From the NCBI GenBank assembly GCA_963758195.1, contig CAVWUH010000002.1, positions 3,981,560 through 4,045,559 of the forward strand: a DNA stretch of 64,000 bases, in the 5' to 3' direction. The translations under genes and the position numbers were made by a program. Positions 1-8,247 of the stretch are shown here, piece after piece. The DNA comes from an uncultured Acidobacteriota bacterium (GTDB taxonomy: Bacteria > Acidobacteriota > Thermoanaerobaculia > Gp7-AA8). The stretch's first letter is position 1. Each line of letters starts with the position of its first letter. The notes below the pieces were generated by a model. It saw only the letters and a program-made list of their open reading frames with translations, did no database searches and was not told the DNA's origin.

Positions 1-409
1 CTTCTTCGCCGATCTTCTTCAGGATCCGATCGCGGCCTCCGTTGAACAACTTTGCGGAGTACGAGCCCTCGGGACGTTTCTCATTGCGATCACGCAGGAC
101 GGACATCAGCCGTTCCAATGGACGCGGCGGTACGTCCGCGAAGCACGACGTTGCGCCGGTGTGACACGCCGGACCGCGCGGTTCGACCGTGATGACCAGC
201 GCGTCGCGATCGCAGTCTTCGGCGATGTGGAGGACGCGTTGCGTGTTGCCGCTCGTTGCGCCTTTGTGCCAGAGCTCGTTGCGGCTGCGGCTCCAGAACC
301 AGGTCTCGCCGGTCTCGCGCGTTTTGGCGAGCGATTCTTCGTTCATGTAGGCGAGCGTGAGGATCGCGCCGGTTCTCGCGTCGCGAATGATTGCGGGGAT
401 GAGGTTCAT
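1..409 (-). CDS. hisIE: bifunctional PR-AMP cyclohydrolase / PR-ATP pyrophosphatase HisIE, C-terminus beyond window edge
   Basis: Hand translation from ATG 409..407: [90 protein letters not shown] (HisI core), then HisE-like [24 protein letters not shown] overlap with hisF stop. Missing from the ORF track only because it is truncated. Confidence 0.85.
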
Positions 410-1866
410 CGGACTGGAATCCCTTCTGCGTCGAGGTGGTGCTTCACGTCGCTGACCGTGAGCACGCCGTCGTGAAAGAGAGAGGCGGCGAGGATGGCGC
501 GCGCGCCGCCGGACTCGATGGCGTCGCGAAAGTCGTCGAGACAACCCGCGCCGCCCGAGGCGATCACCCCGATGCGGAGGCGCGAGGTGACGGCGCGCAG
601 CAACTCGATGTCGAAGCCGCGGTTCGTTCCGTCGCGATCGACGGACGTGAGCAGAATCTCGCCGGCTCCCAGCTCTTCGGCGCGCGCGCACCATTCGACG
701 GCATCGACGCTCGTGAGTTCGCGTCCGCTGCGCATTGTGGCCAAACCTTCCTTCGCGTCGCAGGAAAGCACGACTGCCTGCACGCCGAACTCCTGCGCGC
801 ATTCGCGGATCAGTTCGGGTCTGCGCATGGCGGCGGTGTTGATGGCGACGCGATCGGCGCCGGCGCGCAACGTCGAACGAAAGTCGTCGATCGTGCGCAC
901 GCCGCCGCCGACGGTGAGCGGGATGAAGATCGACTCGGCGACCCGGCGAACGGTTTCCGTCGCCGTCGTCGTGTCGCGGTCCGTGGCGGAGACGTCGAGC
1001 ATCACCAGTTCGTCCGCTCCCTCCTGCTCGTAGCGCATCGCACATGCGACCGGATCGCCGGCATCGCGGAGATTCGCGAACGACACGCCCTTCACGACGC
1101 GTCCGTCGCGTACGTCGAGGCAGGGGATGACGCGCTCGGGGATCGCGTTCGGTGTCGCGAGCCGCGCACGTACCTCGCGAAAATCGATTCGCCGCTCGAG
1201 CAGCGCCCGGCCGATGACGGAGCCGCTGATGTTGCCGAGGCGCGCGAGCGAGATCGTGTCGCTGACGGTGGAAACGCCGCCGGACGCGATGATACCCACG
1301 CTCGTCATCCGGCGAAGCTCGCGATACAGCGCGAAGGAAGGACCGCGCAGGACGCCGTCGCGAGAGATGTCGGTGACGAGTGCCTCGGGAATCGCGAGCG
1401 CTTCGATGCGCGCGAAGATGTCCGCGAGGGTCGTTGTCGATGCGCTCTCCCAGCCGTCGGTGCGAATGACGCCGTCGCGCACGTCGACCGCGGGAAGGAT
1501 CCGATCGGCGCCGAATGCGTCGACGAGCGCGGCCAGGAGATGCGGCGAGGTCGCGGCGACCGTTCCGACGACGACGCGCTGCACGCCGCAATCGAGCCAG
1601 CGGCGCGCGTCGTCGGTCGAGCGGATGCCGCCGCCGACTTGCAGGATGAGATCACGACGCGCGAGACGGCGAACGATCTCGGTCTCGATGGGTCGTCCCG
1701 TTCGCGAGGCTTCGAGGTCGACGAGATGCAGCCGCGTTCCGCGCGGAACGTCGAGCGAATCGAGCACCGCTTCCGGCTCGCCGTAGTCGCGCGCCGACGC
1801 GAACTCACCGCGCGTCAGACGAACGACGCGGCCATTGAGCAGATCGAGCGAAGGGATCAGTTCCAT
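406..1866 (-). CDS. hisA-hisF: HisA (ProFAR isomerase, ~1866..1141) and HisF (IGP synthase cyclase subunit, ~1140..409) in one uninterrupted reading frame
   Basis: Part of ORF 406..2751(-). [17 protein letters not shown]...QVGGGIRS...[12 protein letters not shown] is HisA-like. It continues directly as ...[24 protein letters not shown]...LTVGGGVR...SVDRDGT...ASGGAG...ASLFH, which is HisF-like. No stop and no ATG/GTG/TTG lies between the two barrels. Confidence 0.8.
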
Positions 1867-2604
1867 TGCACGAAGTTCCTCAGCACACGCAGGCCCGCGT
1901 CGGACGATTTCTCGGGATGGAACTGCACGCCGAACACGCGTCGCTCCTGGGCCGCGGCGGTGAAGGTGCCGTCGTAGTCCGCAGACGCGATCTCGTCTGG
2001 CGACGCCGCGCGCCGCAAACGAGTTGACGAAGTAGAACGGCGTTCCGTCGTCGATGCCATCGAAGAGCGGACCGTGCCCGGTCACGCGATTCCATCCGAT
2101 CTGTGGCACGGGCAGCGGTCCGTCGAAGTGCTCGACCTCACCGCGAAGGAGACCGAGGCCGCGCGTGGAGCCCATCTCGCTGGAGACGTCGAAGAGAACT
2201 TGATGGCCGACGCAGATGCCGAGGAGGAGCGCCTCATTCGTCACCGCCTCGCGAATCGCGGCGTCGAGGTGCGTCGACTCGAGAAACTGCATCGCCGCCG
2301 CGAACGAACCGACCCCCGGCAGCACCAGTTTGCGCGCCCGCGCGATCGCACGCGGTTCACGCGTGAGCTCGAGATCTGCGCCGCACGCGCGCAACGCGCG
2401 CGCGATGTTCGCGACGTTGGCGACGGGAGAATCGATAAGGGTGACGGCAGAAGCCGCAGGCTTCGGCGGTTCTGTGTAGCGACGGCCGCCCTCGGCCGTC
2501 GGCTCGAGCGCCACACGAAAATCCGAGACGGAATGCACATCGTTCTGCTTGCCGGCCGAGGGCGGCCAGCACCACACAGAACCGCGTTCGCTCCGCGAAA
2601 ACAT
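1857..2604 (-). CDS. hisH: IGP synthase glutamine amidotransferase subunit HisH, frame-disrupted near 2004-2016
   Basis: N-part is in the frame of ORF 406..2751 (VTLIDSPVANVANIARAL...LVLPGVGSFAAAM...LLGICVGHQVLF...FYFVNSFAA). C-part is in ORF 1857..2060 (ASPDEIASADYDGTFTAAAQERRVFGVQFHPEKS). A +1 shift is needed inside GCGGCGCGCGGCG. TGATG junction with hisB at 2604. Start uncertain: ATG 2604 or GTG 2514. Confidence 0.8.
2464..2586. repeat. hairpin repeat family F (arms GGTTCTGTGTAGCG.GGCCGCCCTCGGCCG / CGGCCGAGGGCGGCC..CACACAGAACC) lying in the 5' part of the hisH frame
   Basis: Arms 2464-2498 and 2553-2586 are reverse complements. A second copy with the same arms and a different loop lies at 16394-16550. 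Confidence 0.8.
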
Positions 2605-3191
2605 CAAATCACTCCCTTCGTGCTCGGCACGTCCGCTCCGACAACTTCCTTCGCCATACGAACCGCGATCGCGAACGCCTTGAAGATCGCCTCCGCCGCG
2701 TGGTGGCCGTTGCGGCCGCGGATCAGGTCGACGTGGATGTTGCAGGCGCACTTGTTCGCGAACGACTTGAAGAACTCCTCGACGAGCGCGAACGGAAAGT
2801 CGCGGTGGATGAGCAGCATCTCGCGATCGATCGGAACGTCGAACACGAGAAACGGACGGCCGGAGAAATCGACGACCACGCGCGCGAGCGATTCGTCGAG
2901 CGGCACGTAGGCGTGGCCGAAGCGACGGATGCCGCGCTTGTCGTTGAGCGCGGCGGCGAACGCTTCGCCGAGGACGAGGCCCGTGTCTTCGACGGTGTGG
3001 TGATAGTCGATGAACGTGTCGCCGGTAGCGACGATGTCGAGATCGACCTGGCCGTGACGGGAGATCACCTCGAGCATGTGCGAGAGAAATCCGATCGGCG
3101 TGTCGATCTTCGAACGGCCGATGCCGTCGAGGTCGAGCGTGACCGCGACCGAGGTTTCCTTCGTGGCGCGTGTGACCGTGGCCGTTCTCAT
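2604..3191 (-). CDS. hisB: imidazoleglycerol-phosphate dehydratase
   Basis: ORF 195 aa: TKETSVAVTLDLDG...GFLSHMLEVISRHG...DYHHTVEDTGLVLGEAF...NGHHAAEAIFKAFA. ATGA overlap with the hisC stop. Confidence 0.95.
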   Translation of the reverse strand: MRTATVTRATKETSVAVTLDLDGIGRSKIDTPIGFLSHMLEVISRHGQVDLDIVATGDTFIDYHHTVEDTGLVLGEAFAAALNDKRGIRRFGHAYVPLDESLARVVVDFSGRPFLVFDVPIDREMLLIHRDFPFALVEEFFKSFANKCACNIHVDLIRGRNGHHAAEAIFKAFAIAVRMAKEVVGADVPSTKGVI

Positions 3192-4217
3192 GCGAGCTCC
3201 TTCAGTGCGGCGAGGAAGCAGTCGTTCTCGTCACGCGTGCCGATCGACACGCGCAGGCAGCGCTGCATGCGCGGATACGACGAAACGTCGCGCAGGAGAA
3301 TGCCGCGGCGATGGAAGTCGTCAAGCAACAACGCGGAGCGGAAGGCGACGAAGTTCGCCGACGTCGGAAAGACGGTTAGCGCCGGAATCGCGCGCATCAC
3401 GGCGAGGATGCGCTCGCGCTCGGCGAGCATACGCGCGACGTTGCCGTCGCGGATGTCGCGGCGCGCGAGCGCGGCCGCGGCGATGGTTTCGCTGACGATG
3501 TTGAGGCTGTAGGGGAGCTTCACCTTACGGATCTGGCGGCAGGTCGCGGCGGTCGACGCGAGCCAGCCGACGCGCAGACCGGCGAGGCCCCAGGCCTTCG
3601 AGAAGGTCGAGAACGTGACGAGGCGATCGTGCAGCGGAGGCAGCGTGTCGTTCGCGAAGTCGCCGTACGCGCGATCGAAGAGCACGGTTGCGCCAGTGGC
3701 CAGCAGCGCGTCGAGTCCGCCGCGTGGCAGCACGCCGCCCGTGGGGTTGTTCGGCGAGCAGAGAATCGCGATGGAGCCGGGAAGCTCTTCGAGCGCGCGA
3801 AGCATCTCGTCGAGCGGCAGAAAACCGGAATCGGGATCGAACTCGATGGGAACTGCGTTGCCGCCGGCGATCGTGATCAGTTTCTCGTAAAGCGTGAAGG
3901 TCGGGCGCGGAAAGACCACGGGCAGTGCCTGGCCCGACGAACGCGCCGATCGCGGCGGCGAGAAGCTCATTCGAGCCGTTGCCGGTGAGGATCTCTTCCG
4001 CGCGCAGGTCGTACGCATTCGCGAGCGCGTTGCGGAGCGTGGTCGATTCGAAGTCGGGATAGCGATTCCAGGGCATGGCTTCGATCTGCGCGAGGAGCTG
4101 TTGTTTGATCTCGCGCGGAACGTCGAACGGGCTTTCGTTCTGATTCACCTTGACCTCGGCTTCGCGGAGCTCGAGGGTGTAAGCGGTCATGGCGGCGACG
4201 GCGGCGCGGGCGTTCAT
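3188..4217 (-). CDS. hisC: histidinol-phosphate aminotransferase, frame-disrupted near 3925-3940
   Basis: N-part is in ORF 3525..4217 (VKVNQNESPFDVPREIKQQL...ILTGNGSNELLAAAIGAFVGPG). The rest is in ORF 3188..4018 (QALPVVFPRPTFTLYEKL...LCSPNNPTGGVL...STFSKAWGLAGLRVGW). A +1 shift is needed at GGGCCAGGC. Confidence 0.85.
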
Positions 4218-5455: not shown

Positions 5456-6068
5456 GTTTCGCTTCCTCGATCCGCGCGATCAGCTCGCGGATCCGTTGGT
5501 TGTTCATGCGGTAAACGTTCTTCGACACGATGAGCCGCGGCGTGATTTCCGCGACGAGGTCCTGCAATTCGAGGTTGTGGACGCGCACGGTCTCGCCGGT
5601 CTCCACGAGGTCGACGACGTGCGAGGTGAGGCCGAGCACCGCCGCCAGCTCGACCGAACCGGCGAGCGGCACGACCTCGGCGCGCAGGGCGTTCGCGTCG
5701 AGGTATTGGCGCGTGACGCGCGGATATTTCGTGGCAATGCGCGCGGTGATGTCGCGCGACAATCGTGGCGAGCCGGCGGCGCCAATCACCATCATCCGGC
5801 AGCGCCCGTACGGCAGTTCGAGCGATTGGTAGGCCGTGCTCTCGTGCTCGAGAATCTGATCGAAGCCCGCGACGCCGGCGTCCGCCGCGCCATGCTCGAC
5901 ATAGGCGGGGACATCGGAGTCCTTGACGAAGATCCACTCGATGCCGCCGCGCGTGAAGACGAGCCTTCGCGTGCGGAGATCGAGCTCGGTGGGAACGTCG
6001 TAGCCCGCGGCTTCGAACGTCGCCAGAACGGGCGATTGCAGTCGCCCTTTGGGAATTGCGATTCTCAT
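5427..6068 (-). CDS. hisG: ATP phosphoribosyltransferase, short (HisZ-dependent) form
   Basis: ORF 213 aa: [15 protein letters not shown]...FVKDSDVPAYVEHGAADAGVAGFD...VATKYPRVT...LTSHVVDLVETGETV. ATGA overlap with the hisZ stop. Confidence 0.9.
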   Translation of the reverse strand: MRIAIPKGRLQSPVLATFEAAGYDVPTELDLRTRRLVFTRGGIEWIFVKDSDVPAYVEHGAADAGVAGFDQILEHESTAYQSLELPYGRCRMMVIGAAGSPRLSRDITARIATKYPRVTRQYLDANALRAEVVPLAGSVELAAVLGLTSHVVDLVETGETVRVHNLELQDLVAEITPRLIVSKNVYRMNNQRIRELIARIEEAKHEQARSCVA

Positions 6069-6844
6069 GATTGCTCCTGTGGTGCCGGCTGGAAGCCGGC
6101 GGACCGGCCGGCTGGAAGCCTGCGCTCCTCCAATTCATCGATGGTGAAGGTGAAGCCGATCGCCGGCGCGTCGTGGCCGAAACGGCCGTAGAGCGTGTCG
6201 TAGCGTCCGCCCTGCGCGATCAACGTGCGGCGATCGTTGCCGAAGACGCCGAAGCGGAGACCGGTGTAGTAGCCGGTGTCGGTTTCGCGGTCATCGACAT
6301 AGGCGACGAATCGCGGATCGTCGCCGAGATCGGCGGTGAGCTCGGAGCCGAGCGCCGCGACGCCGGTGTACGTGACGAGGGGATCGATGTCGAACGATCG
6401 CGCGATCGTCGCGACGAGCCGCAGGATCGCGGCGTCCGCTGATGGAGAAGGATCGCCAATCAGTTCTGCGCCGATCTGGAAGAGCTCGCGGTTGGCGCCG
6501 AGTCGCGTGGCCTGACAACGAATGACGTCGCCGCGATAGAAGACGCGCAGCGGCAGATCGTCTTCGTCGAGCGCCGGCGCGAGCGCGCGGGCAACCATCG
6601 GTGTGAAGTCGGATCGAATCGCGACGAGCTCACCGTCGCGATCGGTGAATCGATAGCTCTGTCGCGCGGCGTCGCGTCCCATCACCGTCGCGTAGGGTTC
6701 CGCGAAGTCGATGATCGGCAGGACGACCTCGGCGAAGCCTTCGCTTTCGAGGAGCGCAACGAAACGCGATTCGATGCGTCTTCGCCGCGCCGTCTCTTCG
6801 ATCAGCAGCGGTCGTGCGCCCGTCGGATATCTGAATTTGCCCAT
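6065..6844 (-). CDS. hisZ: ATP phosphoribosyltransferase regulatory subunit (HisRS paralogue) with a repeat-encoded C-terminal tail
   Basis: ORF 259 aa: class-II aaRS-like core ([46 protein letters not shown]). It sits next to a short hisG. The tail [19 protein letters not shown] comes from repeat family G. Confidence 0.8.
6085..6127. repeat. repeat family G copy inside the hisZ 3' end
   Basis: CCGGCTGGAAGCCGGCGGACCGGCCGGCTGGAAGCCTGCGCTC. Same reading frame and same position relative to the downstream ATGA junction as the hisD copy. Confidence 0.85.
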
Positions 6845-6845
6845 C

Positions 6846-6884
6846 AGTCAAAAAACCTCTTCCCCGTGTTCAGGAAGAGGTTTT
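6846..6884 (-). terminator. rho-independent terminator-like hairpin plus U6 directly upstream of the hisZ start (candidate attenuator terminator)
   Basis: Minus-strand RNA AACCUCUUCC-UGAACACGG-GGAAGAGGUU followed by UUUUUUGACUG-AUG(hisZ). Perfect 10-bp stem at 6854-6863/6873-6882. Confidence 0.6.
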
Positions 6885-6948
6885 CGACTCGTCGCAGATG
6901 CTCATCGCGTGCGCCCCCTCCTTTCGGCGGGGCACAACGAACGCACCC

Positions 6949-7032
6949 CTACCGCCTGTGATGGTGGTGGTGGTGCCGATGCGTGCGAGTGGCGTTCACG
7001 TCGCCGGGCAGTGTAGCAGAATGCGTTCCCAT
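6949..7032 (-). CDS. candidate his operon leader peptide (27 aa, His-codon run)
   Basis: Tail of ORF 6949..8169(-) from ATG 7032..7030: [27 protein letters not shown]. Codons are CAT CGG CAC CAC CAC CAC CAT CAC. It lies upstream of the terminator and hisZ. No obvious SD. Confidence 0.5.
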
Positions 7033-7047
7033 TACAATCGCGCGACC

Positions 7048-8247
7048 ATGACGTCCACCATGACAATTGATGAACAACTCGACTACCTCGCCAAGGGGAC
7101 GGTCGATCTGATCGAGCGCGCTGACCTCAAGTCGAAGATGGAGCGGGGCAAGCCGCTGACGATCAAGGTCGGGTTCGATCCGACGGCGCCGGACATTCAC
7201 CTCGGCCACACGGTCGTGATCCGCAAGATGCGCCACTTCCAGCAGCTCGGGCATCGCGTGATTTTTCTCATCGGCGACTTCACCGGCATGATCGGCGACC
7301 CAACGGGCAAGAAGGCCACGCGTCCCGCGCTGTCGCGGGAAGAGATCGCCCAGAACGCGGAGACGTACCGCCGGCAGGTCTACAAGATTCTCGATCCCGA
7401 GAAGACGGAGATCCGCTTCAACTCCGAATGGCTCGGCGCCCTCGGCGCGGAAGGGATGGTCCGTCTTGCCGCGAAGTACACGCTGGCGCGCATCCTCGAA
7501 CGCGACGATTTTCGAAAACGCTTCGAAGCGCATCAGCCGATCGCCATCCACGAACTGCTTTATCCGCTCGCGCAAGGCTACGACTCCGTCGCGCTGAAGT
7601 GCGATGTGGAGATGGGCGGGACCGATCAGCTTTTCAATCTGCTCGTCGGCCGCGATCTCATGCGCGAGTACAAGCTCGAGCCGCAGGTCGTGATCACGAT
7701 GCCGCTGCTCGAAGGTCTCGATGGTGTCGAGAAGATGTCGAAGTCTCTCGGCAATTACATCGGCATCGACGAGGCGCCGGCGCAGATGTTCGGCAAGGTG
7801 ATGTCGATCTCCGATGAGCTGATGTGGAAGTACTACGTGCTCTGCACCGATCTCACGCCCGCGCAGATCGCCGAGCGGCGTTCGCTCCATCCCATGGATG
7901 CGAAGAAGGAACTGGCGAAGTCGATCATCCGCGACTTCCACGATGCCGATGCGGCGGAAGCGGCGGAAGCCGAGTTCAAGCGGATCTTCAGCGACGGACA
8001 GAGACCGACCGAGATCGAGGAGAAGTCGCTGCCGTCGACCGCCGAGCCCCAGCTCCTTGCCCGCGTCATCACCGCGGCGGGCCTGGCCGAGAGCAACAAG
8101 GACGCGCAGCGTCTGATCGCGCAAGGCGGAGTGCTCGTCGACGAAGTGAAGATCGAGTCGATCAAGCACGCGCTCGATGCCGCTGCGGGGAAGAGCTACG
8201 TGATCAAGGTGGGAAAGCGCCGGTTCGCGCGAGTGACGTTCGGCTAA
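7048..8247 (+). CDS. tyrS: tyrosine--tRNA ligase
   Basis: ORF 6898..8247, start taken at ATG 7048 ([14 protein letters not shown]). HLGH and KMSKS class-I signatures, with a C-terminal S4-like domain ([14 protein letters not shown]). Confidence 0.93.

Follow-up and report, generated by a model that had tools for sequence, protein, structure and literature searches.

Candidate histidine leader-peptide attenuator in front of a hisZ-first his operon in Thermoanaerobaculia (Acidobacteriota)

In E. coli trpL, the position of the ribosome on the leader ORF selects between an antiterminator and a terminator, and the hisL leader alternates between the pairings A:B, C:D and E:F on the one hand and B:C and D:E on the other. 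Attenuation at the enterobacterial hisL leader is an established mechanism (PMC9413887). In addition, His leaders have been predicted 5' of hisZ or his operons in the Bacillus cereus group, Peptostreptococcaceae and Erysipelotrichales (PMC2965389, PMC9413887), and a search for His leaders in Actinobacteria is cited as well. Moreover, leaderless polycysteine short ORFs attenuate Cys operons in mycobacteria (10.1101/834739; PMC4633059). No report of his leader-peptide attenuation in Acidobacteria was found in the literature searched. The initial annotation of the locus described here had regarded such an attenuator as new for this kind of organism, which holds for Acidobacteria only, as His leaders before hisZ have been described in Firmicutes (PMC2965389, PMC9413887).

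HisZ homologues place the source genome of the window (the whole 64-kb stretch of DNA analysed) in the class Thermoanaerobaculia, phylum Acidobacteriota, in line with the earlier impression of a non-proteobacterial host. On the minus strand, the leader is followed by the his genes in the order hisZ-hisG-hisD-hisC-hisB-hisH-hisA-hisF, and the divergent neighbor tyrS is located 5' of the leader, on the plus strand, with its start at 7048. The nearest relative (86% HisZ identity) has an almost identical leader and shares the tyrS/hisZ layout. The region in front of hisZ very probably contains a ribosome-mediated (leader-peptide) transcription attenuator, which would set expression of the his operon by the supply of charged tRNA-His. 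Strong comparative evidence supports this interpretation; the function is inferred, as are the transcription start, the translation of the leader, in vivo termination and a response to histidine. The elements of the locus are as follows; all five RNA segments originally quoted are present, at 6949-6854.

7032..7037, minus strand: predicted -35-like hexamer TTGTAA, 4/6 matches, 16-nt spacer to the -10
7010..7015, minus strand: predicted -10 hexamer TACACT, conserved in relatives
6949..6999, minus strand: putative leader peptide ORF GTG...TAG, 16 codons, the conserved form of the 7032..6949 ORF
6958..6981, minus strand: putative regulatory His codons CAT CGG CAC CAC CAC CAC CAT CAC, 7 His
6943..6949, minus strand: segment 1, GGGGUGC, whose first G is the G of the UAG stop
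6929..6936, minus strand: segment 2, UGUGCCCC, with segment 1 or segment 3 as alternative partners
6910..6922, minus strand: segment 3, AGGAGGGGGCGCA, whose 3' part pairs with segment 2 and whose 5' part, AGGAGGGGG, pairs with segment 4 (antiterminator)
6872..6882, minus strand: segment 4, AACCUCUUCCU, 5' arm of the terminator
6854..6863, minus strand: segment 5, GGAAGAGGUU, 3' arm of the terminator
6850..6883, minus strand: predicted intrinsic terminator, made of segment 4, loop, segment 5 and the T-run 6855-6850
6065..6844, minus strand: hisZ, short form, 259 aa, first gene of the operon, ATG at 6844

The minus-strand ORF 7032..6949, with 7 His among its last 10 sense codons, reads as it was first quoted. 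The His-run ORF itself stands, whereas the start originally assigned to it, ATG 7032, gives way to the conserved GTG 6999, leaving 16 codons. A 406-aa ORF in the leader frame (6949..8169) was rejected as a gene, being the antisense of tyrS. No other site in the window, in any of the six reading frames, reaches 6 or more His in 8 codons, and shuffled sequences are expected to hold 0.08 sites even at the looser threshold of at least 5 His in 8 codons. A scan of the window for other leader ORFs that combine an amino-acid run with a terminator found the his leader alone.

Relatives were collected by scanning one genome per GTDB species with HisZ, which gave 80 hisZ loci, 79 of them with upstream sequence; all 80 come from Thermoanaerobaculia or are labelled Acidobacteriota. 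In 78 of the 79 testable loci, down to 46% HisZ identity, hisZ is preceded by a short His-run ORF, which ends 99-121 nt from hisZ (136 nt in L071). These ORFs comprise 14-19 codons and begin with M or V in 78/79 loci. L077 (1790-2050), the sole testable relative without a His leader, has no ORF with a His run, and the GC-rich hairpins of its upstream region are different ones. With a covariance model derived from the alignment, each locus gave a single full copy, at 83-150 bits, and the window gave one at 122.9 bits. A second match in L017 (1-100, minus strand) was rejected as a second attenuator; it is an inverted duplicate of that locus's own promoter and leader ORF at the contig end, adjoins tandem GAGTCTTC repeats and is most likely a metagenome assembly artefact.

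In metagenomes, scanning was done with the pattern TAGGGGTGC..GYGCCCC..GGGGC, which is too loose: 26 of 120 stretches contain a His run in the TAG frame and 2 more have an upstream UGA stop, and the remainder are unrelated GC-rich hairpins, uninformative on other gene contexts. The element, about 160 nt in size, is counted in 78 genomes and at least 28 metagenome copies. Two metagenome contigs (L086 and L181) show a variant leader, in which 3-4 His end at a UGA located 5 nt 5' of GGGGUGC; this His run is in another frame than the usual UAG, and the RNA segments are otherwise the same.

These comparative data already contradict the reading that a chance ORF happens to lie beside a common terminator, or beside a bidirectional insulator separating tyrS from hisZ, and that nothing here is regulatory, to which we attach almost no credence. 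Spurious ORFs are common in GC-rich genomes, and the palindromic hairpin resembles a terminator when read on the plus strand too. But tyrS and hisZ diverge, so that no gene ends here, and the element tracks hisZ whatever the upstream gene and is kept in 78/79 genomes; such a His run by chance would appear about 0.08 times per window.

The His run bears the marks of a translated sequence. In its six-codon core, C at codon position 1 and A at position 2 are kept by 72-79 of the 79 sequences, and position 3 alternates between C and T (350 CAC and 168 CAT over the 79 sequences). This combination is a coding signature rather than one of RNA pairing; it indicates selection on coding in the His run and thus argues for translation of the ORF. 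Five to nine His are found in the last 12 codons of the 79 sequences, and the last His is 0-3 codons from the stop in 78 of them. The leader stop is UAG in 70/79, its G doubling as the first G of segment 1, and in the other nine segment 1 begins 1-5 nt past the stop.

These features also bear on the idea of an untranslated structured RNA (a metabolite or tRNA riboswitch, a T-box-like or protein-binding leader, or a small RNA), in which the His codons would be there by coincidence. Segments 1-3 do show an unusually invariant primary sequence, and an attenuated RNA of about 150 nt could act in trans, comparable to rnTrpL in Sinorhizobium (PMC6614838). However, the invariance is accounted for by the two alternative partners of each segment, and the His run, with its three-base periodicity and purely synonymous changes, speaks for coding selection. 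In addition, the in-frame start and stop are conserved and the geometry from stop to segment 1 is fixed. Rfam 15 gave no match at gathering over the whole window, RF00514 His_leader and RF00230 T-box included, and a search of 6700-7200 at E<=10 gave neither RF00514 nor T-box and only chance-level matches, for example Thr_leader at 17 bits against a gathering threshold of 55. An untranslated RNA is thus a very improbable account of the element.

The predicted promoter is located immediately upstream of the ORF. Its -10 hexamer TACACT is exact in 51/79 loci, most of the others having one-off variants, and TTGAC[AG] is present 17-18 nt 5' of the -10 in 48/79. In the window the -35 is weak because it overlaps the start region of the divergent tyrS; for this reason a simple promoter scan of the window found no site, and the promoter is visible only in the alignment of the relatives. 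The first in-frame ATG/GTG/TTG follows the -10 at 7-13 nt (mode 10) in about 66/79 loci and aligns with GTG 6999, which in the window is separated from the end of TACACT by 10 nt. ATG 7032 was rejected as the leader start: it is situated between the -35 and the -10, is not conserved and is probably not transcribed.

The same spacing suggests a leader 5' UTR of about 0-7 nt, with a mode of about 4, rather than of zero. No SD-like motif was found in the 10 nt before GTG 6999 or in the corresponding spacers of the relatives. Judging from promoter spacing, the leader mRNA is probably near-leaderless, with leaderless-type initiation that uses no Shine-Dalgarno sequence. GTG starts on mRNAs nearly without a leader are inefficient in some bacteria, which counts against the attenuator reading. 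In three acidobacterial genomes, about 13% of genes have been estimated to use leaderless initiation (PMC3160421).

The leader region folds more stably than shuffled sequences (z = -3.5). The sequence UAGGGGUGC in the segment 1 region is nearly invariant across the 79 sequences, and the pattern formed by segment 1 and segment 2 occurs once in the window against 0.04 expected. Segments 4 and 5 form the perfect 10-bp stem first described, but the U6 said to trail it is reduced to U4, as the stem takes two of the six U; the structure reads either as 10 bp and U4 or as 8 bp and U6. RNAfold lengthens the stem to 12 bp, and the energy in the window ranges from -14.4 (10 bp) to -17.2 kcal/mol. The T-run 6855-6850 is followed by GACUG and then by the hisZ ATG at 6844, so that it ends 5 nt before the ATG. 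Every one of the 79 sequences has, directly in front of hisZ, a hairpin of -12 to -23 kcal/mol that runs into a U-rich tail, and 4-8 T follow the stem (counted over 9 nt, the last 2 stem nt among them).

Segments 2 and 3 pair around the GAAA loop, as initially proposed. Their strongest pairing in the window is UGUGCCCC/GGGGCGCA together with CC/GG (-18.7 kcal/mol), rather than the CCCCGCC/GGAGGGG given before. The 1:2 pairing has an energy of -11.5 kcal/mol, and the 3:4 antiterminator is 9 bp long with -11.3 kcal/mol.

The alternative pairings are preserved among the relatives. The RNAalifold consensus contains 2:3 and 4:5, which corresponds to the terminated state; it also pairs, weakly, CAYC of the last His codons with the GGUG in segment 1. 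Over the 79 sequences, 2:3 is paired in 97.8% of cells, and column 93 of segment 2, either C or U, can still pair with G in segment 1 and with G/A in segment 3 (CG46/UG20/UA8). For 4:5, 89% of cells are paired and 9 of 13 pairs are changed on both sides. The 1:2 pairing is retained in 99% of cells, with one-sided changes only; compensatory ones are absent because the core segments are almost invariant, and such near-invariance of the G4/C4 cores is to be expected if each segment has to suit two partners.

Pairing of 3:4 is found in 86% of cells, compared with at most 62% for slid controls, and the fold made of 1:2 and 3:4 together reaches 87%, again against at most 62%. Compensatory GC<->AU switches between large clades affect two pairs of 3:4, at columns 106:190 (GC31/AU29) and 107:189 (GC40/AU24/GU8); this covariation may reflect few evolutionary events. 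In one clade, GAUCGGAcAAGGGG pairs with CCUCUUcUCCGAUC, and the 2:3 loop has co-evolved there with the upper end of the terminator. The search of orthologous hisZ upstream regions thus agrees with the first proposal, with a His run in 78/79 and covariation of 4:5, 2:3 and 3:4.

The outcome of a folding-energy comparison depends on how much of the leader exists. At equilibrium, the full-length RNA always forms the terminator, under any ribosome mask (P about 0.97), so the choice of fold must be kinetic or co-transcriptional, as in classical attenuators. Before segment 5 exists, the window RNA behaves as initially envisaged: 1:2 and 3:4 together (-22.8 kcal/mol) are more stable than 2:3 alone (-18.7), and when segment 1 is covered 2:3 (-18.7) is more stable than 3:4 (-11.3). 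The family medians are -16.5 for 2:3 and -14.0 for 1:2. As 2:3 is the more stable of the two, segment 3 could displace segment 1, which counts against the attenuator reading.

Ribosome positions were represented by folding the RNA that exists before segment 5 with the A-site codon and 9 nt masked. Segment 4 is more sequestered with the ribosome in the middle of the His run than at the stop in 77/79 sequences. The contrast is moderate, the median P(segment 4 paired) being 0.75 in the stalled state vs 0.51 at the stop, and it is sensitive to the assumed footprint, weakening when 3 nt extra are masked, with the median rising to 0.58. In the stalled state, segment 4 has the segment 3 region as its partner in 70/79 and segment 2 is paired with segment 1 in 65/79. 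The stop overlaps segment 1 or is at most 5 nt from it in 79/79.

In the window itself the stalled ensemble is mixed, with segment 2 paired to segment 3 at 0.69, and segment 4 paired to segment 1 at 0.36 and to segment 3 at 0.23. A three-strand switch of 1:4 vs 4:5 could be read from these values, in which a long-range antiterminator between segment 1 (GGUAGGGG) and segment 4 (CCUCUUCC) would enclose a constitutive 2:3 hairpin. The stalled-state MFE of the window is exactly this fold, 2:3 is the most stable local hairpin, and the ribosome logic would be the same. We nevertheless consider the 1:4 switch quite improbable. The family-wide partners listed above are segment 3 for segment 4 and segment 1 for segment 2, the clade-specific GAUCGGA...UCCGAUC and the GC<->AU switches tie segment 3, not segment 1, to segment 4, and segment 1 is invariant whereas the distal part of segment 4 varies.

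Taken with the 3:4 antiterminator, the attenuator logic put forward at the outset is supported by the same architecture in 78/79 loci, synonymous-only changes of the His codons, covariation in 3:4 and 4:5, and the mask folding in 77/79. Transcription would start at the sigma70-type promoter TTGTAA-16-TACACT, a few nucleotides before the 16-codon SD-less ORF (GTG 6999-TAG 6949). With ample His-tRNA, the ribosome would reach UAG and cover segment 1, since UAG overlaps it. Segments 2 and 3 would then pair, leaving segment 4 free to form the 4:5 terminator with its U-run, and transcription would end some 5 nt short of hisZ. When His-tRNA is scarce, the ribosome would stall in the His run, at least 9 nt 5' of segment 1, and 1:2 would pair once both segments are made. 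The free segment 3 would capture segment 4 before segment 5 is transcribed, no terminator would form, and RNA polymerase would continue into hisZGDCBH(AF). If the leader is not translated, the default fold of 2:3 and 4:5 would lead to termination.

The 3' arm of the terminator holds, as first pointed out, the only SD-like element for hisZ, a GAGG 11 nt from the ATG. This purine-rich GAGG/GGGG is conserved and is the sole such stretch within about 20 nt of the hisZ ATG. Its position within the arm makes a translational component possible. It is unlikely, in our estimation, that the leader and its alternative hairpins act mainly on translation, with 4:5 hiding the GAGG, a stalled ribosome freeing it via 3:4, and termination being minor or absent. 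Such a mode has precedents in the RBS sequestration used by the leaderless Cys sORF attenuators of mycobacteria (10.1101/834739) and in other attenuators with RBS sequestration (PMC9413887). However, the T-run that follows the stem in 79/79 is the signature of an intrinsic terminator and is superfluous for SD masking, 11 nt is a long distance for an SD, and the translational mode and termination are not mutually exclusive.

Both levels are joined in a broader proposal that we advance tentatively and hold to be possible, somewhat short of an even chance. In it, the attenuator would be class-wide, with an SD-less sensor ORF (often starting with GUG) on a leaderless or near-leaderless transcript. 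RNA polymerase would be coupled to the first ribosome that loads at the 5' end, this ribosome would decide on termination about 150 nt downstream, and the same hairpin would mask the hisZ RBS, giving dual control.

Compared with hisL of Salmonella and E. coli, the element has the same 16-codon leader with 7 His codons and a chain of overlapping hairpins, the last of which is an intrinsic terminator immediately in front of the first his gene. Stalling on His codons would likewise give read-through, and the default and fully translated states would terminate; moreover, the weak pairing between His codons and segment 1 resembles A:B of hisL. The two differ in that no sequence or CM similarity to hisL/RF00514 is seen, the phylum is another one, and the first gene is hisZ (the short-HisG system) rather than hisG. 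Furthermore, here the stop codon is fused to segment 1, the start in the window is GTG, and the predicted promoter, 10 nt from the start codon, leaves no room for a Shine-Dalgarno sequence.

With the Firmicutes His leaders, the element shares a hisZ-first operon, a short ORF with 3-5 or more consecutive His and alternative terminator/antiterminator structures, and both are known from comparative genomics only. The lineages are unrelated with no sign of common descent, a distinction drawn from descriptions rather than from sequences, and invariant G4/C4 core motifs of its own mark the acidobacterial family.

The mycobacterial Cys ORFs resemble the predicted arrangement in that the sensor ORF, which lacks an SD, starts with the transcript or shortly after its 5' end (suggested here by promoter spacing only), in a pause on a run of cognate codons that remodels the downstream RNA, and in an SD-like element within the regulated hairpin. 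They sense Cys and act by RBS sequestration, in contrast to the canonical terminator and U-run present here. As in trpL, ribosome position would choose the fold, and the hairpin that follows the ORF (1:2) may double as a pause site. trpL comprises four segments with the regulatory codons inside segment 1, whereas the acidobacterial element comprises five (six with the His codons), the codons being 5' of segment 1.

On these grounds, the element is a well-supported candidate for a new lineage-specific family of a classical mechanism, in which the SD-less sensor ORF is possibly unusual. It would extend classical leader-peptide attenuation to Acidobacteriota and would represent His-codon sensing that has arisen again, on a hisZ-first operon, in a clean and deeply conserved RNA family without a match in Rfam 15. 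The mechanism is a textbook one, and the conceptual surprise is therefore modest. The described leaderless amino-acid-sensing ORFs that we found, those for Cys in mycobacteria, act on translation and not on an intrinsic terminator; the present family offers a natural test case of whether SD-less, near-leaderless translation can drive transcription attenuation.

Several observations concern the genes around the leader. HisZ is unusually short across the clade, at 225-290 aa against profiles of about 314-430 positions, and lacks a central part; the HisZ of the window scores 164 bits, below the curated TIGR00443 cut-off of 272 bits. In the window, hisC (3188-4217, minus strand) has a frameshift near 3920, at about ...AFVGPG, which leaves a pair of overlapping ORFs, 3525..4217 and 3188..4018. 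The hisC of the nearest relative is intact (342 aa), and the frameshift is either an assembly indel error or recent decay. Similarly, the C-terminus of hisH (406-2751, minus strand) is out of frame, turning Arg-rich after ...FYFVNSFAA and continuing into hisA to form one 781-aa ORF. In the relative L201, hisH is separate (197 aa), and the loss of frame is probably a second indel within the same his operon.

No stop codon separates hisA from hisF, and the two genes share one ORF (about 406-1860 of the window, minus strand). The hisA-hisF ORF of L201 (L201:6503-7963) encodes 486 aa with two PF00977 domains, giving an apparent covalent HisA-HisF fusion in the lineage of the window and L201. A 2007 review of his gene fusions does not mention a HisA-HisF fusion (PMC1963479).

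On the other side of the leader, tyrS has a TACAAT box at 7033-7038 (plus strand), 9 nt before its ATG at 7048, and a near-leaderless transcript is possible for tyrS as well. The his -35, on the opposite strand, shares positions with this box, so that the two promoters overlap back to back. Gene callers stretch tyrS over the leader, as seen in the window ORF 6898..8247 (449 aa) and in L201, where 433 aa are called vs about 399. Such over-extended tyrS calls are an annotation trap, which would conceal the leader from annotation.
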